Assembly (NCBI GenBank): GCA_002310415.1
Contig: DBYN01000001.1
Coordinates: 4,332 to 68,331, forward strand
Reading direction: 5' to 3'
From: Alphaproteobacteria bacterium UBA1185
GTDB taxonomy: Bacteria; Pseudomonadota; Alphaproteobacteria; Rs-D84
DNA length: 64,000 nucleotides
Shown: one piece after another, positions 1 to 63,400 of the stretch
Position numbering within the stretch: position 1 is the first letter of the stretch
Layout: each line of letters begins with the position of its first letter
Notes under the pieces: model-generated
What the model saw: only the letters and a program-made list of their open reading frames with translations
What the model was told of the DNA's origin: nothing
The model's database searches: none
Position numbers and translations under genes: made by a program

Positions 1-209
1 GTACCATCTGGCAACGCAGAATGCTCAACATGTCCACGCGGTACAATGATGTAATCACTAGGACTTTCGCCAGATGCCCATTCAACACTACGCGCAACTA
101 TGTTTGCGCCATCTGCAGACTTTAATGTGATTCCTGTACAGGAATCTGCTTGGTGATGTATTCCAACAATCGCCAGAATCATCAAAAAAGTAAATGTTTT
201 CGTTTTCAT
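1..209 (-). CDS. Choloylglycine hydrolase / linear amide C-N hydrolase (Ntn-hydrolase) family protein, 5' part only (gene continues beyond window start)
   Basis: Hand translation of the minus strand from ATG at 207-209 gives MKTKTFTFLMILAIVGIHHQADSCTGITLKSADGANIVARSVEWASGESPSDYIIVPRGH... A signal peptide is followed by the Cys-Thr-Gly...DG...R..(E/D)W context typical of bile-salt hydrolase / penicillin V acylase N-terminal nucleophile enzymes. The frame is open to the window edge, so it is absent from the ORF track. Confidence 0.55.
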   Translation of the reverse strand, partial: MKTKTFTFLMILAIVGIHHQADSCTGITLKSADGANIVARSVEWASGESPSDYIIVPRGHVEHSALPDG

Positions 210-294: not shown

Positions 295-3200
295 TTATAT
301 ACCCAAACGATGATGTATTTTAAACATTAAAATCGATTCGTTTCCGAATACATCCATATTATTCGGATTTATACGATATATCAAACCAACACCAGCATCT
401 GTAAATTCGCCCAATGCACGTTTATAAGAAGTTGAAAATCTTAACTCACGTTTTTGAACAGACAAATCAATGTATTCAGTATGTGCATTATTAACCGCAA
501 TTTCATACTTCCCACCATTTTCAACAACATCAAAATCTGCATAACCATAACCCAACTTGCCGTCTGTCACAGCCAAAGGCAAAGCAAATGTAAATTCAAA
601 GCCACCAAAATCCATTCCAAATGCAAAAGCATTTGATTTGATATCTGATATTTGCGAAATAAATTCACTTTGATTATCTGCACTGGTTAACGCGAACGTT
701 CCACGCAAAGATAACTTTACGTTATCAAATGGTTTATAAGTTGCCAGCGCATCAACATAGTTCGTTTTTGCATTATTCATCGCCAGCATTCCGTCAGTCA
801 ACATACCCAACACTGTATTATTTTCATACATGACACCGAACGACATATTCAACCCAAATTTATCATTAACATACTTTGCATCAAAAGAACCACCATTTGT
901 CAACCCTAAACGCATTGGTTCAAATTGAGATGACACAGTTGGATCTGTATCCAATAAATTTTCATCAGTCATCGCACCAACAAAACCACGACCACCAAAT
1001 GCAAAATGCCCTATTTTATACATTGTATTTGCAGAAAGCGTATCAGACATCAACCCCAATACAGCATTTGCACGACCATTAAATCTGGATTCCCCATCTG
1101 TCAAATAACGTTGATATTCTGTTGAAAAATCAAAACTGTCATTTGCCCAAGAAATACGCATATTATCCAAACCATTCAAATTATCATTATAAGCACGTGT
1201 TGACATAGCCATATCTATTCTTAAATTGCCAATTTGATTTGAATGTTTATTTGTCGAATCAATATTAAAATCACCCAGCACATCACCCATATACAAACCA
1301 TGTTTATTATCAACAAAACCCAATGTAAAAGTATTTTTCCAAACACGTGGCAAAGACAAAGTTCCATCCATGCTTTCCATAATATCATAGAATGAAATAT
1401 TTACATCACCACGTCCAGCCAATGACAAAGCGCCAGATGAACGATACGATGTCGTTGCAGAACGCCAATACGCCGTTTTACCTGAACTGGAAACAATCGT
1501 ATTTTTATCAGCATTATACACATACACATTTGTTCCAGGTCTTGTTGCACGTTCCAAATTTATCATACCATAGCCAAAAACTTGTTTAAAATTATCCAAA
1601 TAGTTTGCATTTGTTACATCAAATTCCCCCGGCAACGTATACATATTTTTAAGATATGTTATTAATTCATCAGTATCTGTCCAATTGTTACCAGTATCTG
1701 GATTAGTTCCCAAATATGGACCATCAGCAGTCAAAGCCAATAATAAAAATATCTGTTTTGGCGATGCATAACTAAACGCACTTTGAACCAGCGCAACCCC
1801 ACCAGCCATCGCAGCAGTTGCATCTATATTGGTAACCCCCGGTGCTGTAAAACACCACGGATTAACGGCACCGTCATTTCCAGTACCTGTTAATCCACAA
1901 ATGCGAGACCTGTAAGTTACACCATCTTCCACCCAATTTGATAATACTATTTTATTTTTATCGGTTGGCGCATACCCATCAATAGTAATATTATCTGTCC
2001 CTTTGTTTGGAAAAGCGGATACTACCGTTACAAATAAATTTTGTAATTTTGTAAAAATTGCAGGGGCAAAATTTTCAAATGTTGCAACCTGAGCAGCCAC
2101 ACTTGCATCCAAAGCCCCTGCATACTTGGACCATCCCGCAGGATTTATCAACATATATTGCTCATCATCTCGTTGATAATCACTTATATATTCAAAGACA
2201 TATTTTGCATCAGTTGCAGGCGCATTCAAATTATCATTTGTTTGTAAATCATAATATTTGTTTATCAAACTATAATACTGTTGAAGCGCCACAGTTTCAT
2301 TATGAGCATTTAATGCGAGATTATATGAAGCCTTTGCACTGCTTACTGTATCATATTCCAGATTATTTGAACTATCCGGCAAAGACAAATTAGCAATAAT
2401 ATTTGTAACATTTTTATTATCATCACCTTGCAGTTGTAATGCATCACGCATTGCGTAATAATTTCTGTAATCCGACGGAGTTGTTGACAATTCTTTAATC
2501 AAAGTCATCGCATTATCTGTCGTACTAAATTCATATATCTGATTTATATTACCATCCGCCAAAGAATCTATATACAATTTGTTGTTAATGATATAAGCAT
2601 TGTAAATCTTGGAATTATCATTTTGCGCGACCGCCGTTACCAACGATCCATCAACAGAATCTTCTGCTACATCTGTAATCCTTAATACCGTTCCATCCGC
2701 CAAAGTAAGGGTATCATCTTCACTTAACACCATACCAGCAAGAGTATAACTGCCTGTAACCGCAGAACCCTGTTCGGGTTCGACCCAATTACTGCCAGCG
2801 CCAGTTTTGTAAACAGTCAATTGTCCATTAGGAATAAAACCATAATAATCGCCGGATGCACGACCACCGTATTCCCAACCGGCGATTATTTTTGCCGACG
2901 TTGTATCTTGTTTATTTGCCACCCCAAACACTATTCCAGAACCTGATAAATCAAATTTCGTATCATCTTGACCAACAATACTATGGCTTACTTTGTAATC
3001 TTCATTATAATACTTATTTGACGTCTTCGTTGCGGCACTTAAAGCATTATAACAAAGCGCACTATTGTTTCCGTTTGCATTACACACAGATTGCACAGTT
3101 GGGATACTGGCTGCATCAACCCATGTAATTGTACCATTTGCAGAACTATCTGTGTTTTTAACGTTAACCCCACTGCCCGTTATCATGGCAACATTTACAG

Positions 3201-4005
3201 GTTTACCGCCATCCACAGGATTTTTGTTATTAACATTGGCTTCTACATATGGTAATAAACTTAAATTAAAAGGTGTTTTATCGTCCGCTATTCTAACAGT
3301 ACTCATTCCCAAATACCCACGCACAAAAGAATTATACGCATGCGACACCATCAAATAATTAAAACCATTGTCGGACATATAATCGAAATCTTGGTTATTT
3401 TTTTCCCACACCGAAAAATCAGTCGGACATGATGTAGCGCTATCACACGCTGGTCCATAAGGTAAATCCAAGGCAAACAATTTGCTTGCTTCGCCAGAAC
3501 CATTACCACCGCTACCACCACTACCACTGCCATGTGAACCACCAGACGAAGATGCATTATTATTATTCTCTGAATCAAAAGCATCGGTCAACAATGCCAC
3601 CCCACCAATAACCGCGGCCACCCCAACAGCAGACAACGCAACAACATGCGAAGAAGACAATCCACTGAAAAAGTCATATTCTTCACCCTTGGTTGCGACA
3701 TTCGTTTTGCGTTTATATTGCTTAATCTGTTTATCACAATCTGATGCATCTGCGCCATATCGCTGTAAAATCTGAATCGTGCGCTTATCATTATTCATAA
3801 CAGCGGTACAAACCAAAGATAACCCCGTAGAATCAACATAATTAACATCTGCCCCGGCGGTAATCAAAGCCTGAACCGTTTGCATATCACCACGTCGCGC
3901 AGCAGATAACAATTTCGTAGCATTTTGGAAATCAGAACCAGTCGCCCCAAATACATTGCAAGGAACCAACAAGCCCACAAACAGCCAAAACCTGATGTTT
4001 TTCAT
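295..4005 (-). CDS. Large secreted ankyrin-repeat protein with subtilase(S8)-like central region (catalytic residues apparently not conserved) and C-terminal beta-barrel, autotransporter-like
   Basis: 1236-aa ORF with signal peptide MKNIRFWLFVGLLVPCNVFGA. Two ANK repeats are present (LLSAARRGDMQTVQALITAGADVNYVDSTGLSLVCTAVMNNDKRTIQILQRYGAD), followed by an N/G/S-rich linker. GKPVNVAMITGSGVN resembles the S8 Asp-box, and DATAAMAGGVALVQSAFSYASPKQIFLLLALTAD resembles the S8 Ser-box region. The last ~280 aa show alternating G/F/Y/N-rich strands like an outer-membrane barrel. Confidence 0.6.
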   Translation of the reverse strand: MKNIRFWLFVGLLVPCNVFGATGSDFQNATKLLSAARRGDMQTVQALITAGADVNYVDSTGLSLVCTAVMNNDKRTIQILQRYGADASDCDKQIKQYKRKTNVATKGEEYDFFSGLSSSHVVALSAVGVAAVIGGVALLTDAFDSENNNNASSSGGSHGSGSGGSGGNGSGEASKLFALDLPYGPACDSATSCPTDFSVWEKNNQDFDYMSDNGFNYLMVSHAYNSFVRGYLGMSTVRIADDKTPFNLSLLPYVEANVNNKNPVDGGKPVNVAMITGSGVNVKNTDSSANGTITWVDAASIPTVQSVCNANGNNSALCYNALSAATKTSNKYYNEDYKVSHSIVGQDDTKFDLSGSGIVFGVANKQDTTSAKIIAGWEYGGRASGDYYGFIPNGQLTVYKTGAGSNWVEPEQGSAVTGSYTLAGMVLSEDDTLTLADGTVLRITDVAEDSVDGSLVTAVAQNDNSKIYNAYIINNKLYIDSLADGNINQIYEFSTTDNAMTLIKELSTTPSDYRNYYAMRDALQLQGDDNKNVTNIIANLSLPDSSNNLEYDTVSSAKASYNLALNAHNETVALQQYYSLINKYYDLQTNDNLNAPATDAKYVFEYISDYQRDDEQYMLINPAGWSKYAGALDASVAAQVATFENFAPAIFTKLQNLFVTVVSAFPNKGTDNITIDGYAPTDKNKIVLSNWVEDGVTYRSRICGLTGTGNDGAVNPWCFTAPGVTNIDATAAMAGGVALVQSAFSYASPKQIFLLLALTADGPYLGTNPDTGNNWTDTDELITYLKNMYTLPGEFDVTNANYLDNFKQVFGYGMINLERATRPGTNVYVYNADKNTIVSSSGKTAYWRSATTSYRSSGALSLAGRGDVNISFYDIMESMDGTLSLPRVWKNTFTLGFVDNKHGLYMGDVLGDFNIDSTNKHSNQIGNLRIDMAMSTRAYNDNLNGLDNMRISWANDSFDFSTEYQRYLTDGESRFNGRANAVLGLMSDTLSANTMYKIGHFAFGGRGFVGAMTDENLLDTDPTVSSQFEPMRLGLTNGGSFDAKYVNDKFGLNMSFGVMYENNTVLGMLTDGMLAMNNAKTNYVDALATYKPFDNVKLSLRGTFALTSADNQSEFISQISDIKSNAFAFGMDFGGFEFTFALPLAVTDGKLGYGYADFDVVENGGKYEIAVNNAHTEYIDLSVQKRELRFSTSYKRALGEFTDAGVGLIYRINPNNMDVFGNESILMFKIHHRLGI

Positions 4006-4094
4006 GAAACTACTCTCTCTATCAAGTAAACTTTAACATAAATTGACATATTGTGTCCAGCGTTTTTAATTGCACAAATAACATATTTTTTTCG

Positions 4095-4123
4095 TTGCGT
4101 TGATATGCAATTTTTGATATACT
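4095..4123 (+). promoter_or_regulatory. Sigma70-like promoter for the 4141-8748 operon
   Basis: TTGCGT (4095-4100), a 17-nt spacer, then TATACT (4118-4123), about 18 nt upstream of the ATG at 4141. A GAGAG Shine-Dalgarno-like element precedes the ATG. Confidence 0.45.
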
Positions 4124-4140
4124 GAAACGCAAGAGAGAAA

Positions 4141-5115
4141 ATGAAATATCGTAATTTGTTTTTAACAATGGGATTGTTGTTCGTACCGCACGTTGTGTTT
4201 GGTGCGTGTTCTACTGCAAATTTAACACGTTGTTTGGATTCTGTATGTGCAATAAACATTGGTGCAAATCCTGCCGCCCGGTGTCAATATTGTGGATCGG
4301 CTACTTTTGGTGAATCAAAAACCGAAGGTGTGATGAAAAACGTAACTGCGGGCAGTGCTGCTAAATACACGATTTCTGACAAAGAATTGAAAAAGGCCCC
4401 CAAAGACCAGGGTCAACGTTATATATGGGCGACAGAACAATGTTTAAAGAAAGTCAAAGACTGCACCCAAGAAAATGTTGATGAAATTTACGACCCATTG
4501 ATTGAACAATCTTGCAAATCTGCTGGAATTTCTTTTGATGTGAAAAATTTGGCACAAAAGGCAACACAAACAAAAACTAAATCTGCATGCTCAACTGAAA
4601 TAACGGCTTGTGTTATTGCAGAAAATCATTGTATGGCAAATTATGGCAATTGTGAACTGGATGCTGATTTTGATAAACATTTTTCGGAATGTGCCCTTGT
4701 TGCAAGTGGTTGTGATGAATTTTCCAAAGACATACGTTCAACATTGGCATCTGCACGCAATACCGCATTTAAAAACGCAGAAAGTGCACTGGAAGGTATT
4801 GTGTTGGCGCACCAGGAAGCCCGCGAAACAAAATTAAATCAGGTTCAAGCGGCATGCACAGATCAATATGCAAAACAAAAGTGTGTATCAGACGTATGCG
4901 AAAATTATATGCCGAATAAATGCAGCCCGATGACATTGGCTATAAATTTGGGTTCAGAAGACCAAGATAAATATAAAATCGAACGTGCCTTGGCGGAAGA
5001 GTTTTGTTTATATCACGATACAGCATGCAGTCGTTTACCACCAACATTCAAACTAATAAAACCTATACAACTAAATCCGAACATCGATTTAGTAAAACAA
5101 GCAAAACGGAAGTAA
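4141..5115 (+). CDS. Secreted cysteine-rich protein, unknown family (P1 of four-gene operon)
   Basis: Signal peptide MKYRNLFLTMGLLFVPHVVFGA. The Cys module repeats as CSTANLTRCLDSVCAINIGANPAARC, CSTEITACVIAENHCMANYGNC and CTDQYAKQKCVSDVCENYMPNKC. No enzymatic motif recognised. Confidence 0.8.
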   Translation: MKYRNLFLTMGLLFVPHVVFGACSTANLTRCLDSVCAINIGANPAARCQYCGSATFGESKTEGVMKNVTAGSAAKYTISDKELKKAPKDQGQRYIWATEQCLKKVKDCTQENVDEIYDPLIEQSCKSAGISFDVKNLAQKATQTKTKSACSTEITACVIAENHCMANYGNCELDADFDKHFSECALVASGCDEFSKDIRSTLASARNTAFKNAESALEGIVLAHQEARETKLNQVQAACTDQYAKQKCVSDVCENYMPNKCSPMTLAINLGSEDQDKYKIERALAEEFCLYHDTACSRLPPTFKLIKPIQLNPNIDLVKQAKRK

Positions 5116-5118
5116 CAG

Positions 5119-6582
5119 ATGAAATATGTTAACAAAAGATTTTCAATGTCGGCATTACTGATTGCATCCGCAATATGTTCTTTGTTTGTTATTTCTGAAA
5201 ATGTAAGCGCGGCCCCACGCGCTGCAATTCGTGGCAGCGGTGTGGCACGTCAATCGGCGCAAAAGGCCACAACTCAAAATGTTACAGAAGAAACCGATTC
5301 GGAATTGCTTGAACCAGAAGAAGAGATATCAGAAACAGTTGATGTGGAAATTGATACCCCCGAACCCACTGCAAATAAATCAAAAAAATTTGATGCGGTT
5401 GCAACATCTGCATCCACAACATCATCTAAATCTGCGTCTGGCAATAATATGGCGGAAATGATTCGCAAAGAACGCGCCGCACATGCTGCAAAAGATGCAA
5501 TGTATGCCGCAGATGAACAGGCACGAAAGGCATCAAGCGGTTTAAATCAATGCGATCTTGGATTACGCGAATGCATGAAAAAAACATGTGGTGATGGTTT
5601 TATAAAATGTGCATTGGACGGGGATACAGATTTTGGTGCAAAAATAAATAAATGTAAACGCGATTTGCCATGCTCTGGCAAAGAAGTTAATTTGTTTTCC
5701 ACTGAAATCAAGGCTGACCGCGATTTAAATGTCCAAATTGCATCATATAATGCGGTAATTGATTGTGCTAATCTTTACAACAAATGTATAATATCAGAAT
5801 GTGGTACAACATTTGATAAATGTCTGGGCAAAAGTGCCGAAAATGCCGCATTAAATAAATGTAAAGATATTGCAACAAAATGCAAAGAATACGATTCTGG
5901 TTTACCTGCACGTGCCGGCAAAGTTATTGCGGGCTTGCGTCAAAATGCAGAAATAAATATCAAAAAAGACGAACAACGTTTGTATGATTTGCGTGAATTA
6001 ATGCAAAATGCATGCAAAAAATTGGGGGCATCATTTGATGAACGCAGTTTTGATTGTGTATATACTGTGGAATTTTTTGCCGGCGAAGACAACCCAGATA
6101 TCCCAAAGGCATCACGTAAATTATATGCAGGTGATATGTTTACATGTACCCAGGAATATTTTGGAATCGATGTTACAACATATCGTGAAAATGCTTTACG
6201 TGAAACACGTGCACAAAAGGCTGCATCTTCTGCTATGTTGGGTGCTGGGGCTGGTGTGGCGGCTGGCGCAATTGCATCTGGCGCAATAGGTCGTGCAATT
6301 GAAACAGACAAAGCCAAGAAAGAAGTAAACGAAGCCGAAAAAGAAAAATCAAAAGTAGAATGTGAAAATGCCAGTAATTATTGGGTTAATAACAAGGAAT
6401 GTGTAAAAGATGGTGCCGAATGTTCAACTGGTGTGGCGGGCAGTAGTAAAGGCACAGGAACATGGAAAAAAGATGCATCAGGTCCATATTGTCATGTTAC
6501 AGAATGTAACACAAAATTGGGCTGGAAACCCGCCAAAGACGGAAAAAGTTGCGCTTTCTTGAAAAAGAACCAAGCACAATAA
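5119..6582 (+). CDS. Secreted cysteine-rich protein with glycine-zipper hydrophobic segment, unknown family (P2)
   Basis: Starts 3 nt after P1. Signal peptide MKYVNKRFSMSALLIASAICSLFVISENVSA, then an acidic/Ser-rich linker. Cys modules are CDLGLRECMKKTCGDGFIKC and CANLYNKCIISECGTTFDKC. A Gly/Ala-rich segment (AMLGAGAGVAAGAIASGAIG) is followed by a second Cys-rich tail. Confidence 0.8.
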   Translation: MKYVNKRFSMSALLIASAICSLFVISENVSAAPRAAIRGSGVARQSAQKATTQNVTEETDSELLEPEEEISETVDVEIDTPEPTANKSKKFDAVATSASTTSSKSASGNNMAEMIRKERAAHAAKDAMYAADEQARKASSGLNQCDLGLRECMKKTCGDGFIKCALDGDTDFGAKINKCKRDLPCSGKEVNLFSTEIKADRDLNVQIASYNAVIDCANLYNKCIISECGTTFDKCLGKSAENAALNKCKDIATKCKEYDSGLPARAGKVIAGLRQNAEINIKKDEQRLYDLRELMQNACKKLGASFDERSFDCVYTVEFFAGEDNPDIPKASRKLYAGDMFTCTQEYFGIDVTTYRENALRETRAQKAASSAMLGAGAGVAAGAIASGAIGRAIETDKAKKEVNEAEKEKSKVECENASNYWVNNKECVKDGAECSTGVAGSSKGTGTWKKDASGPYCHVTECNTKLGWKPAKDGKSCAFLKKNQAQ

Positions 6583-6607
6583 ACAAAAAATAATAAAATA
6601 AAGAAAA

Positions 6608-7954
6608 ATGAAAATAACAAATAAAATTTTAATCGCCATATTAATGTGTATGCCATTGGTTGCATGGGGTACTGTTACACAAGAAACGTTACAAGCAATT
6701 GAAAACGCAGAGTCTGTGGAGACGGCAAAGCAACGCGCAACCGAAGCACTAACAAAATCAAAGCAACAATATCCAAAAGCCAACAATACAAATATTATAG
6801 ACGAAGCACAAAATACGATAAAATCGGCAAGTGGTGGTAATGGCAACAAAGCTGACTCTGAAAAAAAATCTATTGAACAACCAAAGGAAGAAGATTCCCA
6901 AGAACCCGCACCCCAAAAGGATGACATAGACCAGGCCGCAGAATCTGTCGAAGTAGCACCTGAAGAAAACAACGGCGACAAACCTGAAAAAGACAAAGCC
7001 GCAGAGGATAAAGCTGCAAATCCAGACGCAGAGAAACAAGATAAACTGGATGAAGCCCAATCTAAAATTGATGCCGCCAAAGATAAATTAGCGGCTGCTG
7101 AAGATAACCAAAATTCATGGCAGAATCGTTTGTTAAATGGTTTAACAATAGCTGCAACTGGTATTGGTGGCATGCAATTGGCCCAGGGTATTGCCGAAAA
7201 GTCTGCTGACAGCGCCGCAGACAAAGATATGGAAGCATATATGAAAACTATGTATTGTAAATACGGTGGTATGCATACTGTGCCGTTTGGTATCGACCCT
7301 GTTGAATTGCCCGGTGGAAATGACAGCGAAGTAATGCAATACCGTAATGAATATCTTGCCAAGGCTGCATCTTTGAAGACCCGCAAAGAAGCATTGGGAT
7401 TAAAACCAGGTATTGAATCCGAAGAAATTTTGGACAGGGCAAGTATGGGATTATATGATGATGAAAATCGTGGTGTAACTGGCGGACATTACGCATCACG
7501 TTATCGTGCCGAAACGGGTAGCGAAGATGACAAGAAAGGTTTGGATTCTGCCAAGAAAGAAGCCAAAACACGTATGATTGCCGGTGGTGTTGTAGCGGGT
7601 GTCGGAATCGTTGGTGGTATTGTCGGCAACAGTATTATAAATGGCAGATTGGGCAAATTAATCAAAGAAAAGAATTCTGATTTTGACAAAGATGATAACG
7701 ACAAAGCAATACGCAAAATCAAAGCCGTAATGGAAGATGCAGGTATTAAAGGCACAGATAGATTAAATCTTACCAATTTGGACGTTCGTGATTTGGGCGA
7801 TGAAGCCGATAATCTTAAATTTAAAACATCCGTCAAGGGCAAATATGCAACCAGCCTGTTTAAAACCAGCAGCGCCAGTGCATTTACAGACAGTTTGTAT
7901 GAACACTTGACCTCGGACAGTAAAAAGGAAATAGATGGTGCTGGTGCAAAATAG
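6608..7954 (+). CDS. Secreted acidic/Lys-rich protein with glycine-zipper segments, unknown family (P3)
   Basis: Signal peptide MKITNKILIAILMCMPLVAWG. A long E/K/D/A-rich low-complexity region follows. Hydrophobic Gly-rich segments are LTIAATGIGGMQLAQGIA and MIAGGVVAGVGIVGGIVGNSIING. The 302-aa antisense ORF is judged a shadow. Confidence 0.75.
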   Translation: MKITNKILIAILMCMPLVAWGTVTQETLQAIENAESVETAKQRATEALTKSKQQYPKANNTNIIDEAQNTIKSASGGNGNKADSEKKSIEQPKEEDSQEPAPQKDDIDQAAESVEVAPEENNGDKPEKDKAAEDKAANPDAEKQDKLDEAQSKIDAAKDKLAAAEDNQNSWQNRLLNGLTIAATGIGGMQLAQGIAEKSADSAADKDMEAYMKTMYCKYGGMHTVPFGIDPVELPGGNDSEVMQYRNEYLAKAASLKTRKEALGLKPGIESEEILDRASMGLYDDENRGVTGGHYASRYRAETGSEDDKKGLDSAKKEAKTRMIAGGVVAGVGIVGGIVGNSIINGRLGKLIKEKNSDFDKDDNDKAIRKIKAVMEDAGIKGTDRLNLTNLDVRDLGDEADNLKFKTSVKGKYATSLFKTSSASAFTDSLYEHLTSDSKKEIDGAGAK

Positions 7955-7983
7955 AATAAGATAAACCAACAGGATTTAAAATT

Positions 7984-8748
7984 ATGAAATACAACAAACC
8001 CAGAATTTTTATAGCATTCCTTTGTCTGGCTATATTACCGGTTTCAAATGTTTTTGCTGCATCTTGTTTTGAAATGGTGACGGAAGATGTGAAGGCTATA
8101 TTAGAAGACCGTAATGCTAAACTAAAATATCTGGAACTAGATGACAACGACATAGAAAAAATACAAAAACTATATGACGAAGATAACCAATGTGAACAAG
8201 AACACAATTGTCCCCAGGTAATTGCTGCTGCTTTGGAATCAGATATATGTCCACAAGTGTTAATGGGCATTTGTGGTGAAATTTCGGGTACTATGACACA
8301 AGATAAACAATCTTGTGGTAAACGTGAAACACCTGCAAACAAATCATTATCCGACATAAAACAAGAAATTGAAGAAGCAGAACAACGGATAAAGTCAACT
8401 GATTTCTTTGAATCTTGTGAACAAAGCGCATCATCATCAAAATACTATACATTAATTTGCAGAAATAGCCCATATAAATTAGAAATATTATACGACCTTA
8501 GCAACGCAACTTGTCCAGATGGACAAGAAGTATATAAAGGCGAATGTCGCGAAAAAGAAAAGACCGAACAAAAACCAGATGAACTGGAAGAATCTAAACC
8601 TGCTGAACAGGAACAAGAAAAAACGGATGAAGCAGAACAAAACGACAAAGAACAATCGGCAGAATACGATAATGAAAAACTACAACAAGATGTTGATGCG
8701 ATTATGCGTGCATTCAATAACAATCCACACGTACAAACAAGCAAATAA
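7984..8748 (+). CDS. Secreted Cys-containing protein with acidic C-terminal tail, unknown family (P4)
   Basis: Signal peptide MKYNKPRIFIAFLCLAILPVSNVFA. Cysteines are scattered through the protein (CEQEHNCPQV..ICPQVLMGICGE..). The C-terminus is E/K/Q-rich. It is the last gene of the co-directional cluster. Confidence 0.7.
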   Translation: MKYNKPRIFIAFLCLAILPVSNVFAASCFEMVTEDVKAILEDRNAKLKYLELDDNDIEKIQKLYDEDNQCEQEHNCPQVIAAALESDICPQVLMGICGEISGTMTQDKQSCGKRETPANKSLSDIKQEIEEAEQRIKSTDFFESCEQSASSSKYYTLICRNSPYKLEILYDLSNATCPDGQEVYKGECREKEKTEQKPDELEESKPAEQEQEKTDEAEQNDKEQSAEYDNEKLQQDVDAIMRAFNNNPHVQTSK

Positions 8749-16014: not shown

Positions 16015-16091
16015 CGGAGCGTAGCTCAGTCTGGTAGAGTACTTGGTTTGGGACCAAGGTGTCGAAGGTTCGAATCCTTTCGCTCCGACCA
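16015..16091 (+). tRNA. tRNA-Pro (anticodon UGG)
   Basis: Manual cloverleaf. Acceptor CGGAGCG/CGCTCCG, D arm GCTC-AGTCTGGTA-GAGT, anticodon arm CTTGG-TTTGGGA-CCAAG (TGG at 34-36, G37), T arm GAAGG-TTCGAAT-CCTTT, encoded CCA. Confidence 0.9.
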
Positions 16092-20187: not shown

Positions 20188-20264
20188 CGGGGTGTAGCGC
20201 AGCCTGGTAGCGCGTTTGTCTGGGGGGCAAAAGGTCGCGGGTTCGAACCCCGCCACTCCGACCA
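20188..20264 (+). tRNA. tRNA-Pro (anticodon GGG)
   Basis: Manual cloverleaf. Acceptor CGGGGTG/CACTCCG, D arm GCGC-AGCCTGGTA-GCGC, anticodon arm TTTGT-CTGGGGG-GCAAA (GGG at 34-36, G37), T arm GCGGG-TTCGAAC-CCCGC, encoded CCA. Confidence 0.85.
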
Positions 20265-35223: not shown

Positions 35224-36906
35224 TTACATCTTTTCATTATCAGAACGATTGTGTCCTTGCAATACATTATTTTTTAATTTTTCACTTGCTGTGCTTATTT
35301 TATCTTTTATTGCCAAAACCGCATTTTTAAACACATCTAATGTTGAAATTTCACCGAATATTTTTATTTTACTTGCATTTGTACCACCGTTTTTTCTATA
35401 TATGTAAGCATTATCATATTCCCAACCATATTCTGTTACTTTGGTCTGTGGTCCAATAATTATATTATCTTTGACCCATACGTTTTTTTCAAAAACAATA
35501 TCTTTTACATCACTAAAATCATAGTTACCCACCATCAATACGTTTTGCAAACCTATCTTTGTTGCATGCGGGTTAATTTTAAATTGTTTGCTATCAACCG
35601 TAAGTAAACCCCAATCATCTTCATATAAATATAACGCATCTACATTATTGAAATCGTATTCCGGGTCAGGAAATTTACATTTGTACAAAACAAGTTCTTT
35701 GACATCCATACCTTTGAAATCTATTGCTTGTACAGATTCATTTCGTGCCCACAATTCATGTATTGATTTTATTTTTTTTATATCTATTCCCCGGGTAAAC
35801 AGTAGATTATATGGAACACTTTTCAATTCTACATCTTGCGGTAAATCAAACATATCAACAACACCACCATGTACATCTTCAACAAAGCCTATGTTTTCTG
35901 TATCAACTATTAGACGTTTATTATCTGGATTTTCCTTTGGATAGCGATAAGCCTGTCTGAAAGTACCATCTTCGTTCCTTTCCACCAAGTCTTTATTAGT
36001 AATTCTTGCACGTTCTTCCGCTGTAAACTCATTTGGGAAAGCACAGTTTAAATAATTTTTTAAAAATTCACGAACTTGTTTGATATATTTACCATTTACC
36101 GGTCCATTGGCTTTACCTTTAATCTGATGCACAACATTTCTTCTGACCTCTATTGTGGCATGAGAACCATTACTGTTACGTACAGAGTATATTTGTGATG
36201 CACCTTTTTTGACACCTTCATCATATACACCATCTCCAATACACACCCCCATTGCATTACCCTCGTAATCCAATGCTTCTGGTGTTATTAATTGAAAAAC
36301 AGATAACCCATTGCCCAAATCCATTACAAATTTTGTACCAGTATCTGCTTTTTCTTTTTGTTCCAGGGTCATGGCATTTTTTGCATTATTTGACAATTCA
36401 TTGTGCCAATCACGAGCCTGTTGAACAACATTGTCAATAGTCTGGTATTTAGCATTTTTCTTTAAATAATCATATTCTATACGTAATTGTTTTTTACCAT
36501 TTGATAATTCGACATCTTTTAATTCTTTTTTAATATAATCCACCGCCACAGAATATAAATAATCACGAATTTCCAATAATTCATTACGAAATTCATTTGG
36601 AACTTTGCCAGCATCAAATTCATAAATATCTTCACCACGTGCAAAAGTAGTTTTGGTCCATTCTGGTAAACCAGAACGCGTTTTGTCCACTTTTACAAAA
36701 CATGGTAATTCTGTGCGCGAAATACTGTAATCACGCACTCTGCGTTTAACATATTGAAATAAGATATTACGAGCAATTGCATCTATATTTTCACGTGCTA
36801 TTTCAACGTTTTCAACCCGGATAATCGTTGGGGCGCCACCATCATAAACCAAATCTTGCAAATATCTGTTTAATGATTTTTCTTCCAAAAGATTTATTAC
36901 AGCCAT
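35224..36906 (-). CDS. PcfJ-like domain protein with repeat-containing C-terminal half
   Basis: 560 aa. EGNAMGVCIGDGVYDEGVKKGASQIYSVRNSNGSHATIEVRRNVVHQIKGKANG resembles the conserved core of PcfJ-like proteins of conjugative elements (E..M.hC.g..Y...g...iySlR...g.p..TiE.....i.Q.kG..N). Assigned from memory of the family, not from a search. Confidence 0.5.
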   Translation of the reverse strand: MAVINLLEEKSLNRYLQDLVYDGGAPTIIRVENVEIARENIDAIARNILFQYVKRRVRDYSISRTELPCFVKVDKTRSGLPEWTKTTFARGEDIYEFDAGKVPNEFRNELLEIRDYLYSVAVDYIKKELKDVELSNGKKQLRIEYDYLKKNAKYQTIDNVVQQARDWHNELSNNAKNAMTLEQKEKADTGTKFVMDLGNGLSVFQLITPEALDYEGNAMGVCIGDGVYDEGVKKGASQIYSVRNSNGSHATIEVRRNVVHQIKGKANGPVNGKYIKQVREFLKNYLNCAFPNEFTAEERARITNKDLVERNEDGTFRQAYRYPKENPDNKRLIVDTENIGFVEDVHGGVVDMFDLPQDVELKSVPYNLLFTRGIDIKKIKSIHELWARNESVQAIDFKGMDVKELVLYKCKFPDPEYDFNNVDALYLYEDDWGLLTVDSKQFKINPHATKIGLQNVLMVGNYDFSDVKDIVFEKNVWVKDNIIIGPQTKVTEYGWEYDNAYIYRKNGGTNASKIKIFGEISTLDVFKNAVLAIKDKISTASEKLKNNVLQGHNRSDNEKM

Positions 36907-44587: not shown

Positions 44588-46540
44588 ATGAAAAAAACTT
44601 TATGTTTAACATCCTTGCTTGCAATTATGGCAACCAATGCTGCAATTGCAAATACAGATGTAACTTTTGGTGGTAAATATTTATTGCCAGATGGGACAGA
44701 AGCAAACGTCAGCACAAATGTTGGCGACACCACATATACCTATACTAAAACTGATGGTTCCAATGCGACCGCAGCATATGATGAAGACCCAAATTTAACA
44801 TATTTTACATATACAAACAAAGATGGTATTACCGCTAATTTATCATCTGGAACTGGTTTGACACAATCTGATTTTAATGCAGACAGTGCCGCAACAGGTG
44901 ATGTAATAACAACACAAACAATAGCAGCAGGCGAAACCGCAGATAGAGCAAATTATACATACGTAAATGGTAAAGGTAATACTGTTGTATTGGGTGACGC
45001 TAAACAATCTTTCACAGAATCATACAATTTATTAACAGGTTTACCAATTTCTAACGATTATACTATCGCATTGGCTGATAATTATATCACCTCTGTTGAT
45101 GTCACAGATGGCACACCAGATAACACTTTGGATGGTACACACTATATTTTACATGCATCTAATAACAATGATTACAGACTGAACGAAGACGGAACTGAAA
45201 TCAGAAAAGTCAGCGACGGCAGTATTGTTAATATTGCAGATTTTCCAGATATAAGTTCAGAATTAACTGCTTTACAAAATGCATACACTTCAGATGTCTC
45301 TGCAATCAACAATTTGAGAACACAAACCGGTGACTGGGCCGCCGATGAAACAACAGCATGGGGGACCGCTGATACAATATTTAATACCGATTCAAATAAA
45401 ATTAACACATTGAATGGATATTATACAGAATACACCGATGCATTAAGCGCATTGGATGCAGCAAATTCAGCAAAAGCAGATGCTGTTGAAGCAAATACAG
45501 AAAATATTGCCTATCAAACCGCTGCACGCGATTTGTATAATTCATCAATTGAAACGACATTAGCAAGTGTAGAACAAAATGCCAAAGATTACGCGGACAA
45601 TTTGGCATCTAATTATGATGCAGCAGGTTCTGCAAATACTGCTGAACAAAACGCCAAAGATTACGCAGACAATTTAGCATCTAATTATGATGCAGCGGGT
45701 TCTGCAAATACTGCTGAACAAAATGCCAAAGATTACGCAGACAATTTGGCATCTAATTATGATGCTGCCGGAACATCTGCCACAGAAACCGCACGTGCAA
45801 CAGCAGAAGAAGCATCTATTCGTTCGGATTTTGCGACTGCGGATACTGCGACATTAACTGCTGCAAATGGTTATACAGATACGGCTGTATCGGTCGAAGC
45901 AGCACGTGTTGATGCAACAATGGGTACAATCCATGGATTGGTTGGAAACGCAAACGCACCTACAACATCTAATGGTAAAAAATACAATGGCAACTTGGCA
46001 GTTGGTACAACAGTTGAAGACCATTTATTAGCATTAGATGATTCAATCGGTGACAGAAGAACCTTGAACGGTAATCATGTGTCTAAATCTGTTTCCGTTG
46101 TTGAAAACCTGCAATCTTTGAATGACGATTTAGATGCAGAAATTGCACGTGCAACAGCAGAAGAAGCATCTATCCGTTCAGATTTTGCAGCTGCTGATGC
46201 TTTGACTTTAAACCAAGCAAAAGCATATGCAGATAACATTAATGCATTGAACTTGCAGGCGGCCAAATCTTATACAGATGAACGTATTCAAAAATTAGAC
46301 AAAGATTTGTCTGCTGGTATCGCCAGTTCTGTTGCTTTATCTTCTGTATCTGTATCAAATGTTCAAAAAGGCGAAGTATCCGTCGGTGCAGGTTACGGAT
46401 TATATAACGGTCAATCCGCAATGGCATTTGGTGCAGCAATGGGCTTGTCTAACAACTGGTCTGTAAATGCCGGTGCCGGAATTTCTAATTCGGATTTTTC
46501 GTTCCGCGCAGGTACAAATTATAAATTCAAATTATTTTAA
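44588..46540 (+). CDS. Trimeric autotransporter adhesin (YadA-like C-terminal anchor)
   Basis: Signal peptide MKKTLCLTSLLAIMATNAAIA. A Thr/Asn/Asp-rich passenger is followed by repeated stalk motifs (ARATAEEASIRSDFA.AD twice). The C-terminal anchor is AGIASSVALSSVS...SVGAGYGLYNGQSAMAFGAAMGLSNNWSVNAGAGIS..FRAGTNYKFKLF. Confidence 0.85.
   Translation: MKKTLCLTSLLAIMATNAAIANTDVTFGGKYLLPDGTEANVSTNVGDTTYTYTKTDGSNATAAYDEDPNLTYFTYTNKDGITANLSSGTGLTQSDFNADSAATGDVITTQTIAAGETADRANYTYVNGKGNTVVLGDAKQSFTESYNLLTGLPISNDYTIALADNYITSVDVTDGTPDNTLDGTHYILHASNNNDYRLNEDGTEIRKVSDGSIVNIADFPDISSELTALQNAYTSDVSAINNLRTQTGDWAADETTAWGTADTIFNTDSNKINTLNGYYTEYTDALSALDAANSAKADAVEANTENIAYQTAARDLYNSSIETTLASVEQNAKDYADNLASNYDAAGSANTAEQNAKDYADNLASNYDAAGSANTAEQNAKDYADNLASNYDAAGTSATETARATAEEASIRSDFATADTATLTAANGYTDTAVSVEAARVDATMGTIHGLVGNANAPTTSNGKKYNGNLAVGTTVEDHLLALDDSIGDRRTLNGNHVSKSVSVVENLQSLNDDLDAEIARATAEEASIRSDFAAADALTLNQAKAYADNINALNLQAAKSYTDERIQKLDKDLSAGIASSVALSSVSVSNVQKGEVSVGAGYGLYNGQSAMAFGAAMGLSNNWSVNAGAGISNSDFSFRAGTNYKFKLF
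45572..45770 (+). repeat. 72-nt in-frame tandem repeat (~2.75 copies) inside the adhesin gene
   Basis: Units start at 45572, 45644 and 45716 and encode EQNAKDYADNLASNYDAAGSANTA. Copies differ at only a few, mostly synonymous, positions. Confidence 0.9.
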
Positions 46541-60451: not shown

Positions 60452-63400
60452 TTATTCTACTGATTCATCATGTGCATACCATGTTCCACCAGAATCAATA
60501 ATTACCAACTGATTATCTGATTCAGACGTTATTGTGTGTACAGTTTGTGACAATAACATGTGATATGTCTGACCGTCCTTGCGTGCAATCAAAGCCTTGG
60601 TATTGACACCCGGCAAACCATCAATCAAACACATCGTCGCGCCCATAACCGCCATTTCTGTACAATTGGATGCAGGTTCTGATTGAACAAGGCATCCACC
60701 AGTTTGTGCATCATATATGCAAATTATTTCATCACCTGTTTCGACATCAGTGTATACCAACCATAATGTTGGTTGATTTGGACAATTCGGTTCACCAGAA
60801 CAAGACTCACATTGCCCAGATATTTCTGGCTTTTGTCCGGCACCACACACAACAGAGGTATTAGCAGGAATACACGAAACCTTGCCAGACCAATCGGATT
60901 CAAAACCGGTTGTGTATTGAATCAACGGCGCAGTACACGATGTATCAAGATTGGTTCCTTCAAATATATATTCCATTGGGTCGTCGCCTGTATCAGGATA
61001 CGGATTTGGTGCCGTTAAATTTGCAAACAATGTTGGTGGCACATATCCGGACAAATTGGTCGCATCCATAAACATACCATAAAACATACCTTCTGCCGGT
61101 GTACCGGTAATATTCGGGAATAAACTGTTCGGCAGTTGTGTCAACGACGTACACCCATAAAAAGTAGCCCCAAACATACTCTGAACCCCTGTTACATCAC
61201 CCACCCCGGGGAACAGGTTTTCCGGTATTGATTGCAACGATGTACAATTAAAAAATGTATACGAATACATACCATCCGCCGCACCGGTTACGTGTTCAAA
61301 CAAAGTTGCAGGAATTGGGTTAGTTATTTTCGGATCTGCACCCAATTCCGTACATCCTTCGAATGTACCCCAAAACATGAAGTCTGCTGCATTTGTAATA
61401 CCATTGAATAAGCCCGCTGGGATAAATGTTATTTGGGTCTCTGCAAAAGTCATATAAAACATATATTCTGCCCCACCGGTTACATGTTCAAACAAAGTTT
61501 CAGGAATAGATGTTATCGGTGTATAAGCAAAAGTCATATAAAACATACCTTCTGCCCCACCGGTTACATGTTCAAACAAAGTTTCAGGAATAGATGTTAT
61601 CGGTGTATAAGCAAATGTCCCAGAAAACATACCTTCTGCCGCACCGGTTACACCGTCAAACAAATTTGCAGAAATTGATTTCAACGATGTACAACCATAA
61701 AATGTATTAAAAAATAAAGGTTGAGCAATTATTTGGTTATTTGAATTACGTATTGTTGGAAATACATGTCCCAAAGACCCACGCAATGCCGCAACAAACT
61801 CTCTTCCGTTTTCATAATATAATACACCTTCTACTTCGGAATAATCAGTGGCGGTTCCACCAATACTGATAGTATACGATTGCTGAGTCTCGTACGTATG
61901 TGTTATTGAAAGTCCAGAATCTTTTGATGTGGGTATAAACTCTACCGGACTGTTGTCACCCCAATCTATGAAAAATTTTCCAGCCGCAGATATATATAAA
62001 GTAAATTCACCAACTGTATCACTTGTTGTATCAATAAAGAATTCGTATTGTGGAATGGCTTCACATGAAACTTTGCCATTTAAATCATATTCTGGATTAT
62101 ATTGAAAGGTATTTGACGGACACGATTCCAACAACCCCGTATTACGAAATGTGTCATTATTGGCATAATTTTCGACTTCTTGGTCAAATGTCATGTTATC
62201 AAATATGCTGGCCGGTATATAATATGTACTGCTGCCATTAACCGCATTTTTACCAAGATTCGTATCGCCTGTAAACGTTTTTTCAAAAATTGAACCATCT
62301 ACTTCTGTACCACTTAAATTACCAAATAAATGATCTGGTATTGGCCCATACAAATTTTGGTTGTTATTAAATGTATATGCAAACATGTTGGGGGCAGGAT
62401 TGCCATAAATACCGGTAAACAAATTATCCGGTATTGTTCCAGTCAGATTTGGCAACCCATAAAATGTAAAAATAAATCGTGGCTGTACTTCTAATAAATC
62501 TGTACCAGTTAAATTTGCCGTATTATCCGACAAAGTTGGGAATATAGCCCCCAATGAACCATGTATACCGGTAACAATGTCTGAATCAAATCTGATTGCA
62601 GACGGTGGAATATCGTTTAATACAAACTCACTAGTTGGATACCCAGTTGCCAAACCGGTAATACTGATGGTGTGCTGTCCCGAATTCCAATAGTGACAAC
62701 AAACGCTACTTATATTTTCATCTGCATCCAATCTTGCGAAATAACCTTGGTAATAATCGGCCCATAAACCACCAACATCACCACAATCAAAAAAGAATTC
62801 CCCGGCGGCACCTACATCAAAACAAACTCTACCATACACCCCATCTTCATTTGGTTCGTCATTCGTGGTTACCGTTAATGTAAATGGAAAATTATTTGGT
62901 CGATCTACACATTCGGTGTACGCAGAATTAGCAACTTTACCATTTGGACATGCCGTACAAGCCTCTCTGCCTGAAAACCACTCTTCAAAACCTGTTTCGT
63001 ACGATATAGACGTTGGTGGACACATATCCACACCAGAATTTTCAAATACATCCGACATCTGATATTTTGCCGATTTTACGGGATCATTATTAATACCCGC
63101 AAATAAATCCGGTGGCACAGTTCCCGTTAAATTCCAACAATTATCAAACGTATATGCAAACATGTATTCTGCGGGGTCACCAGAAATGCCATAATACGTG
63201 CCATTAATTTTACGTCCAAACAAAGTACCAGGGATATTACCAGTTAAATTTTCACACGCTTCAAATGTCATCTCAAACATAGACGGTTGTGGGGTGCCTT
63301 TAATACCGTGATATGTACCATTAATAACCCGACCAAACAAGTTTCCCGGTATTGATCCTGATAAGCCCGAACAATTCGCAAAAGTCTTCGCAAACATACT

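Follow-up and report, generated by a model that had tools for sequence, protein, structure and literature searches.

Subtilisin-like autotransporters of type Va Group 15 (fusolisin, NalP, SphB1 and Ssp) combine an N-terminal signal peptide, a passenger with the S8 (subtilase) fold and a C-terminal β-barrel in a single polypeptide. S8-fold domains can also serve for binding rather than turnover, as in PCSK9, a soluble eukaryotic protein that keeps its triad for autoprocessing, and ankyrin (ANK) repeats occur in effectors secreted by type IV systems, such as AnkY and AnkH of Legionella. Type Va secretion itself is defined by a PF03797 translocator, a barrel of 12 strands and a pore helix (PMC9289746). 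Here, we describe a gene that recalls each of these systems and differs from all of them. It lies near the start of a 64,000-nucleotide stretch of contig DBYN01000001.1 from Alphaproteobacteria bacterium UBA1185 (order Rs-D84), the whole of which is called the window below, and encodes a protein of 1236 amino acids (aa). The open reading frame (ORF) proposed in a first-pass annotation of this DNA is real and is conserved in 128 species genomes. With a probability of roughly 0.6, we favour the view that its product is a Sec-exported, barrel-anchored pseudo-subtilase acting as a binding or scaffold module, and that it arose as an expanded, dead duplicate of an active S8-barrel protein.

The likeness to type Va proteins is most evident in the passenger, for which fusolisin, the S8 autotransporter protease of Fusobacterium, is the best match in the PDB by profile and one of the top matches by fold. 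However, the window protein differs from the subtilisin-like autotransporters in the absence of PF03797 and of a pore helix and in its approximately 19 strands instead of 12. It also has no β-helical stalk, has lost its catalytic residues and carries ANK repeats. Compared with PCSK9, its triad is gone and the S8-fold domain is tied to a bacterial outer membrane barrel. Its ANK repeats give weak NCBIfam matches to AnkY and AnkH, whereas a Sec signal peptide, the presence of only two repeats and a covalently attached outer membrane barrel distinguish it from the soluble injected effectors. We found no literature on this architecture. Its unusual traits are a dead subtilase with a live paralogue, an orphan barrel far larger than an autotransporter translocator and an N-terminal module made of ANK repeats and a hydrophobic segment.

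The subtilase-like passenger and its catalytic positions

The central part of the protein had been read as resembling S8 peptidases, and this resemblance is real but remote. The Pfam models for S8 peptidases and autotransporters do not match the window protein itself; PF00082 is matched by six of 24 relatives (best E=2.3e-7), with P0073 reaching 28.3 bits where the cut-off lies at 21.8. In a search of the PDB with the full-length family profile, DARPins swamped the output, and the ANK region was trimmed off for later searches. The trimmed profile then gave fusolisin as its best PDB match, at a marginal E=0.085, with 'NPAG' placed against the S8 'AAGN' box and 'ATAAMAG' against the 'GSSYAAP' box. 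A profile of the short family variants yielded only spurious TRAF2 matches in the PDB and no S8 chain. In an AlphaFold (AF2) model of residues 38-1236, built from a 120-sequence alignment, the predicted local distance difference test score (pLDDT) is ~90 over residues 177-837, and a Foldseek search with the modelled S8 region retrieved fusolisin, MycP1 and mirolase with probabilities of 0.99-1.00. Membership of the S8 family in the sense of fold and homology is thus supported by PF00082 in relatives, by Foldseek and by hhalign to the active S8 paralogues described below (prob 96%), and the possibility that there might be no S8 homology at all, which would have undone the earlier reading, is not what we observed. 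Besides a β-sandwich insertion, the S8 domain contains a helical insertion at residues ~515-610.

A manual alignment had suggested that the catalytic Asp was replaced by Thr, that the catalytic Ser was also replaced and that no clear H-G-T-H box was present. We counted the catalytic columns in 149 full-length members of the family, with identities down to ~28%. The equivalent of D32 of subtilisin BPN' is indeed a threonine, T276, in a column with Thr in 140 members, Ser in eight and Ile in one; this assignment rests on the motif GKPVNVAMITGSGVN and on the β-strand at residues 271-276, not on a significant alignment. As for H64, among the passenger columns (residues 176-901) there is none in which at least 50% of the members have His, and the candidate columns 283, 366 and 367 contain no His. 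The oxyanion Asn (N155) is replaced by W625, in a column that varies between D, R, H, E and W. W625 aligns both with the Asn of fusolisin 'VWAAGN' and with the invariant N250 of the active paralogue ('VWAAGN250' against 'INPAGW625').

The loss of the catalytic Ser is likewise borne out, but the position first assigned to it, T730, was three residues off. The equivalent residue is I727, and the column, which corresponds to the Ser of the G-T-S-x-A-x-P box, holds L, E or M and never Ser. The corresponding loop of the paralogue, ETGSSHLNGTSF ('ETGSSHLNGTS321F'), falls in a 12-residue gap of the window protein, which indicates that the nucleophile loop has been deleted. This register is agreed on by HMMER against fusolisin, by hhalign against subtilisin and by BLASTP and hhalign against the active paralogue. 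With subtilisin BPN' and Carlsberg, hhalign gave short local pieces (prob 1-2%) that served only as a positional ruler, which was later corroborated by the active paralogue.

All four catalytic positions (Asp, His, Asn and Ser) are absent in 149 of the 149 full-length members, and no intact D-H-S triad emerged from the profile scoring that the first-pass annotation had called for. Invariant sequence surrounds the dead site, namely ATFENFAP, NPWCFAAPG, A729 and A731. Two closely spaced Cys pairs of the protein, C66/C90 and C703/C718, are also invariant, the latter being common to the active paralogue. One could still argue that the protein is an ordinary active S8 autotransporter and that the loss of the triad is an alignment artefact. 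Only the fold similarity speaks for this idea, which we consider practically negligible and which is excluded by the column counts, by hhalign to the active paralogue and by the absence of a conserved His in the passenger; three alignments agree on the Ser register, and the barrel is not of the autotransporter kind. Alternatively, the S8 scaffold could have remained an enzyme by using an unconventional nucleophile or dyad, with the conserved T725/T730, S700, S742 or K331/K372 as examples, since several Ser, Thr and Lys residues of the passenger are invariant. This is quite improbable, as the four canonical positions have been lost together with the nucleophile loop, the oxyanion position is variable and an active paralogue co-exists in the lineage. 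With its S8 fold, the family-wide loss of the catalytic positions and an active paralogue for comparison, the passenger fits the pseudo-protease proposed for it earlier. Judging from the alignments, the domain appears to be a subtilase that is dead throughout the family while a live paralogue persists in the lineage.

The active paralogue, proposed origin and distribution of the family

The active paralogue came to light when the flanking ORFs of 83 related loci were searched locally with the barrel profile (hmmsearch), which detected neighbours of ~615 aa in three of the loci (L061, L056 and L068). An exhaustive search with the passenger-region profile against 1.84 billion representative proteins had missed this family and returned only 65 clusters, all of them members or fragments of the pseudo-subtilase family itself. 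Inside the 64-kb window, no paralogue of the 1236-aa protein was found, and the active S8-barrel paralogue is not encoded there. The ~615-aa proteins are genuine subtilases, as their match to PF00082 shows (E=6.7e-27). Their family comprises 785 clusters, ~595-635 aa in length (P0185-P0304), annotated as 'S8 family serine peptidase [Alphaproteobacteria bacterium]'; in an alignment of 120 of its sequences, D145, H152, N250 and S321 are present without exception, and so are two Cys pairs and a terminal Phe.

The two families are related over most of their length. BLASTP of the paralogue against the window protein gives E=8e-5 over residues 700-823, and hhalign aligns the two passengers with prob 96% and E=3.6e-9. 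The barrels are aligned with prob 96% and E=2.2e-9 in the last third, the homology covering the final ~8 strands. Under relaxed settings, the alignment stays collinear along essentially the entire paralogue, beginning at 'ADASDC' and running to the C-terminus. Both proteins have a signal peptide, 'ADASDC', an Ala/Gly-rich hydrophobic segment, a Gly linker, 'AY..RGY.G' and the S8 core, followed by the Cys pair in 'S..CG..C.TAPG', by 'YG.G..(N/D)LERATRP' and by the homologous C-terminal barrel. In contrast, the paralogue keeps the invariant D145/H152/N250/S321, has no ANK repeats, is devoid of ~250 aa of insertions, has a barrel of ~230 instead of ~370 aa and always ends in Phe. The collinearity, together with the hhalign and BLASTP matches, suggests that the window protein is an expanded, catalytically dead duplicate to which ANK repeats have been added.

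In the scenario that we propose, the lineage's active ~615-aa S8 protease-barrel protein, composed of a signal peptide, a short disulfide motif, the hydrophobic segment, the Gly linker, the subtilase and the β-barrel, would have been duplicated. One copy would then have acquired two ankyrin repeats behind the signal peptide and ~250 aa of insertions in the subtilase fold, namely a variable β-sandwich and a helical bundle, while its barrel would have grown from ~230 to ~370 aa. In that copy, the catalytic Asp, His and Ser and the oxyanion Asn would have disappeared, and the nucleophile loop would have been deleted. The pair would offer a clean natural example of a bacterial pseudo-protease whose active paralogue is still available for comparison.

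Full-length homologues of the 1236-aa protein form 309 clusters with 45-62% identity, all from uncultured Alphaproteobacteria or Candidatus (Ca.) Enterousia, and a genome scan found relatives of the gene in 128 species-representative genomes. Each of the 80 listed loci belongs to a different gut or rumen assembly, pointing to a single copy of the gene per genome, and the window sequence itself traces to bovine gut metagenomes. The gene is thus a core, single-copy component of the Ca. Enterousia / Rs-D84 gut Alphaproteobacteria. These widespread uncultured bacteria of gut and rumen have genomes below ~1 Mb without tricarboxylic acid cycle, respiration and standard transporters (PMC12306168). 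A conserved gene of 3.7 kb is a large investment for a genome of this size, and a single-copy envelope protein of 1236 aa linked to orphan secreted proteins is a prime candidate for an interface with the host or with neighbouring cells. Its present annotation as 'ankyrin repeat domain-containing protein' or 'hypothetical protein' hides most of the family's content.

Export signal, barrel and topology

The N-terminus has the features of a Sec signal peptide. By sequence reading, MKNIRFWLFVGLLVPCNVFG, with AT following the cleavage site, shows n-, h- and c-regions and a V-x-G site at -3/-1: MKNIR is followed by a hydrophobic core and then by VFG and AT. The signal peptide claimed earlier is well founded, being conserved across the family, with the cleavage predicted from the motif. 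A lipoprotein reading of 'LLVPC' was rejected, as this sequence is not a lipobox: Pro occupies -1, and in the family alignment P15 is invariant and C16 variable.

The two ANK repeats placed behind the signal peptide by the first-pass annotation are confirmed by Pfam, by DARPin alignments and by AF2 helices. Ank_2, Ank_4 and Ank match residues ~29-92 with E-values from 1e-4 to 2e-3, slightly below their gathering scores in the window copy (Ank_2 E=1.1e-4, Ank_4 E=3.9e-4), and ANK profiles exceed the cut-off in relatives (e.g. 29.5 bits against 22.7). DARPin chains align across residues 25-92, and the AlphaFold model has the expected helix pairs with a capping helix behind them. The protein therefore has the two helix-loop-helix repeats of ~33 residues matching ANK profiles that are the minimum for an ankyrin repeat protein. 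The tail of the second repeat, 'ADASDC..I..Y.R', is common to the active paralogue.

At the other end of the protein, the outer membrane barrel expected from the earlier reading is predicted with confidence, whereas its likeness to autotransporters was not upheld. When modelled by itself (residues 840-1236, 81 sequences), the domain has a pLDDT of 86.6 and a predicted template modelling score (pTM) of 0.84, and both this model and the full-length one contain 19 DSSP strands over ~370 aa. Foldseek recovers outer membrane barrels with a probability of 1.00. The best structural matches are general porins and other large barrels (Omp32, BpsOmp38, OmpT, PorB, MOMP and BcsC), that is, porins of 16-18 strands and BcsC, at a generic TM score of 0.4-0.5; the autotransporter EstA ranks only 33rd. 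The porin comparison is accordingly limited, with a fold probability of 1.00 but a TM score of 0.4-0.5, no sequence match and an odd strand count in the models, whereas those proteins have even strand numbers, no sequence relation to our domain and neither an S8 nor an ANK passenger.

No sequence family was found for residues 880-1236 in the PDB or in Pfam, nor for the C-terminal domain of the paralogue, and none of 22 C-terminal domains of the family matches PF03797 at E<=1. A match to Porin_3 (VDAC/Tom40) with E=0.027 in one of the 22 was dismissed as chance, no VDAC being present among the top 50 fold matches. The 12 strands of type Va barrels are not seen in the models, and instead of an α-helix in the pore before strand 1, residues 838-920 hold only a 7-residue helix (906-912) located after the first β-hairpin. 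Types Vb and Vd do not fit either: there is no match to POTRA or Bac_surface_Ag, and BamA comes only at rank 34 of the fold search (prob 0.92). Some divergent members end in W or F, as would suit the β-signal of outer membrane proteins, and the active family always ends in F. According to the models, the C-terminal domain is an outer membrane barrel that is not of the autotransporter type. Current profiles for autotransporters and porins fail to detect the barrel of either paralogue, which suggests that the type Va-Vf scheme does not cover the full diversity of passenger-barrel fusions.

The layout first described has to be revised, as it overlooked a conserved hydrophobic segment and a Gly/Ser linker between the ANK repeats and the passenger. 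The hydrophobic core of this segment (residues ~112-143) is strongly conserved, with a mean Kyte-Doolittle value of 2.53 over 19 aa, and is preceded by Lys/Arg-rich sequence and followed by acidic residues and the Gly/Ser linker. Its summed hydrophobicity on the biological scale is, by a rough estimate, only about -0.5, and AlphaFold leaves it unmodelled (pLDDT <50). No glycine zipper or other family was found for such hydrophobic segments. A homologous segment is present in the active paralogue, between the exported Cys motif and the flexible Gly linker. The periodicity of conservation is β-like (period 2) in the pseudo-subtilase family and α-helical in the active one, so that the two families contradict each other.

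Cys pairs flank the segment on both sides (C66/C90 and C703/C718, with C26/C39 in the paralogue); being invariant, they suggest that both sides are extracytoplasmic. Genes for DsbA- and SurA-like proteins lie in the conserved flank of homologous loci. As a stop-transfer sequence in the inner membrane behind a cleaved signal peptide, the segment would strand both S8 domain and barrel in the cytoplasm, an arrangement without biological sense. A cytoplasmic location of the ANK repeats with the hydrophobic segment as a signal anchor is also unlikely, since a canonical signal peptide precedes the repeats and their Cys pair is invariant.

In the models, the links between the 19 strands alternate between short ones of 2-4 residues and longer ones mostly of 6-25 residues. 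With such a regular alternation and an odd count, the chain before strand 1 should lie opposite the periplasmic C-terminus. At least three topologies may fit: all N-terminal parts outside, periplasmic ANK repeats with the pseudo-protease as an external loop, or all N-terminal parts in the periplasm. Surface display of the ANK repeats, implied by the first-pass annotation, may thus be only one of these candidates, and in another the repeats would be periplasmic.

One possibility is a classical type Va topology, in which everything N-terminal of the barrel would be exposed at the surface, with the ANK repeats forming the distal tip and serving as an adhesin or for interaction with the host, and with the hydrophobic segment as a surface tether. 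The closest characterized S8 relative is indeed the autotransporter fusolisin, and the odd number of strands in both models puts the chain before strand 1 opposite the C-terminus, although this parity argument comes from DSSP strings only. The Cys pairs are closely spaced, and autotransporter passengers tolerate pairs of this kind. A hydrophobic tether would be analogous to the N-terminal lipid anchor that keeps NalP and SphB1, two subtilisin-like autotransporters, on the cell surface (PMC9289746). However, the three hallmarks of type Va are missing and a hydrophobic segment exposed on the cell surface would be unusual, which leaves this topology tentative, though conceivable.

Alternatively, the ANK repeats could be periplasmic and the hydrophobic segment could cross the outer membrane once, by adding a 20th strand or by running as a helix through the wide barrel, turning the pseudo-subtilase into a giant extracellular loop. 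Nineteen strands and one crossing give an even number, with both termini in the periplasm as in ordinary outer membrane proteins. The position of the segment is the same in both paralogue families, its conservation is β-like in the pseudo-subtilase family and its hydrophobicity on the biological scale is merely borderline for retention in the inner membrane. Nevertheless, AF2 does not dock the segment on or in the barrel, the homologous segment of the active family has the periodicity of an α-helix and no precedent was found; we consider this arrangement rather doubtful.

A third possibility, on balance also unlikely, is that a porin-like barrel acts as anchor or channel and that the ANK repeats and the pseudo-subtilase form a periplasmic docking platform, possibly in contact with inner membrane or periplasmic partners such as the secreted proteins encoded by the adjacent genes n1-n3. 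The layout would resemble the TPR-barrel proteins BcsC and PgaA or the SLH-barrel protein OmpM, and N-terminal periplasmic domains are a common feature of large barrels. Porins and BcsC are the best matches by fold, and no linker helix of the translocation type is present. Conversely, the odd strand count speaks against a periplasmic location of both ends, and the active paralogue would have to be a barrel-bound protease on the periplasmic side, in contrast to the S8-barrel proteins known so far.

For the pseudo-subtilase that we favour, a binding or scaffold module anchored by its barrel, we infer the following mode of action. Sec would export the protein and the β-barrel assembly machinery (BAM) would insert its C-terminal barrel into the outer membrane, where the dead subtilase would serve as a non-catalytic module. 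The conserved region of the former active site, the β-sandwich insert and the ANK pair could provide binding surfaces, and the likely partners would be the co-inherited, Cys-rich secreted proteins n1-n3, the substrates of the active paralogue, or both.

Several points weigh against this proposal. The window protein itself reaches no S8 profile threshold, its only match being to the TIGR03921 mycosin model (E=0.025, residues 728-773), and the Asp and His positions were mapped by motif and secondary-structure matching, as the significant hhalign block begins only at the Asn box. The barrel falls in no recognized family, with BAM dependence and membrane location deduced from its fold only. Moreover, a stop-transfer role of the hydrophobic segment in the inner membrane would contradict the proposed model. 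The partners are suggested by gene linkage alone, and a search of RNA-seq runs found none that contains the gene's sequence. Finally, non-canonical catalysis, although unlikely, is compatible with the sequence.

It is tempting to speculate further that the protein and its active paralogue represent an undescribed type V-like passenger-barrel architecture, in which an orphan barrel of ~18-20 strands displays a globular domain of the subtilase fold in the absence of PF03797 and of a pore helix. The hydrophobic segment would be the missing crossing or tether, the ANK repeats would be periplasmic and the dead protease would be outside. We regard this as a rather bold conjecture, more probably wrong than right. 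If true, the protein could, in a metabolically dependent gut bacterium with a genome of <1 Mb, be the core of a cell-surface complex with n1-n3 used for attachment to partner cells or exchange with them.

Gene neighbourhood and remainder of the window

The features of the protein and of its surroundings are collected in Table 1.

Table 1. Features of the pseudo-subtilase gene, its divergent neighbours and the active paralogue (coordinates refer to the window unless a locus is named).
Feature	Residues	Coordinates	Strand	Remarks
Whole ORF	1236 aa	295..4005	minus	ATG start, stop codon 295-297; signal peptide, ANK, hydrophobic segment, linker, pseudo-S8, β-barrel
Signal peptide	1-20	3946..4005	minus	Sequence features, hydropathy 1.5; predicted cleavage between VFG and AT; conserved in all members including the most divergent
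Two ankyrin repeats and Lys/Arg-rich capping helix	~25-92; helix ~90-106	3688..3933	minus	Pfam, DARPin alignment, AF2; invariant C66, C90
Ala/Gly-rich hydrophobic segment (FFSGLS...VVALSAVGVAAVIGGVALL)	108-143	3577..3684	minus	Hydropathy; conserved; unmodelled by AF2
Gly/Ser/Asn-rich flexible linker	144-175	3481..3576	minus	pLDDT <50; present in both paralogue families
Predicted pseudo-subtilase (S8-fold) domain	176-837	1495..3480	minus	Profile, Foldseek, hhalign; pLDDT ~90
Asp-box equivalent PVNVAMITGSGVN	269-281	3163..3201	minus	D32 equivalent T276; β-strand 271-276 in model
β-sandwich insertion in S8 fold	~395-506	2488..2823	minus	AF2 strands, pLDDT 86-95; gapped in ~1120-1140-aa variants
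Oxyanion-Asn box equivalent MLINPAGWS	618-626	2128..2154	minus	N155 equivalent W625
Ser-box equivalent APGVTNIDATAAMAGGVALVQSAFSY	721-746	1768..1845	minus	S221 equivalent I727; nucleophile loop deleted; Cys pair C703/C718 directly upstream
Linker between S8 and β-domain	838-866	1408..1494	minus	Low confidence in models, no long helix
Predicted C-terminal outer membrane β-barrel	867-1236	298..1407	minus	19 DSSP strands; ends ...HHRLGI
Divergent intergenic region, main gene to n1		4006..4140		135 bp; promoter-like matches
Divergent cluster n1, n2, n3		4141..7954 (n1 4141-5115, n2 5119-6582, n3 6608-7954)	plus	Orphan signal-peptide proteins
n4	254 aa	7984-8748	plus	Signal-peptide protein, 11 Cys, acidic Lys-rich tail; no homologue detected in 83 related loci
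Active S8-barrel paralogue	~615 aa	L061 7339-9180; L056 8596-10419; L068 13990-15762	minus	Just downstream of pseudo-protease gene, convergent; most divergent clade

The genes n1-n3 are transcribed divergently from the main gene, and their products have no match in Pfam, NCBIfam or the PDB. A scan for promoters and terminators gave matches at chance level, with one extended -10 site in the intergenic region at 4059-4030 on the minus strand. The n1 protein has 20 Cys and the n2 protein 22, the latter on both sides of its own Gly/Ala-rich hydrophobic segment; n2 and n3 both carry such segments, like that of the main protein. Linkage to the main gene is found in 79 of 83 loci for n1, 78 for n2 and 51 for n3, while n4, which is not conserved, has joined the cluster as a strain-specific gene. 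With the GrpE-TIM-SurA-RecO-DsbA flank as reference, the five-gene unit formed by the main gene and n1-n4 (295-8748) is flipped in comparison with L001 and L003. L004 and L027, the closest relatives, have the n-cluster upstream of the main gene and in the same direction. These differing arrangements indicate that the unit has been rearranged repeatedly and moves together.

Downstream of the main ORF, positions 1-205 (minus) contain the start of a gene, MKTKTFTFLMILAIVGIHHQADSCTGITLKS..., in which a signal peptide is followed by a Cys-Thr-Gly motif, as in choloylglycine hydrolase and other Ntn hydrolases. A CBAH gene occupies the corresponding place in L001 and L003, where an ORF of 147-150 aa separates it from the main gene.

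A 650-aa protein (44588-46540, plus) with a signal peptide and a YadA-like anchor (PF03895, E=1.8e-10) is a trimeric autotransporter adhesin, showing that the genome also encodes a standard type Vc system. Pfam recognizes this canonical anchor, yet finds nothing in the barrel of the main protein. An ORF of 1151 aa (60452-63907, minus), possibly continuing towards the window end, has no Pfam match. It contains many 'MF..TF..C..LTG.IP..LF.G' repeats, leucine-rich and BspA-like by eye, with Cys-rich spacers, and probably encodes a large surface protein.

Conjugative plasmids are known to carry the PcfJ family; a 560-aa protein (35224-36906, minus) has a PcfJ-like domain (E=2.2e-7) and may be the remnant of a mobile element in this reduced genome. 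Two tRNA-Pro genes (anticodons TGG and GGG; 16015-16091 and 20188-20264, plus), 4 kb apart, are the only RNA genes found in the window. The GC content ranges from 33 to 41%, and the GC skew is negative in 27 of 32 two-kb windows, reaching a cumulative value of -4.07 at the window end. Otherwise, the window consists of ordinary chromosomal genes, among them those for PBP1, LigA, FtsH, GroEL, PFOR and an ABC exporter.

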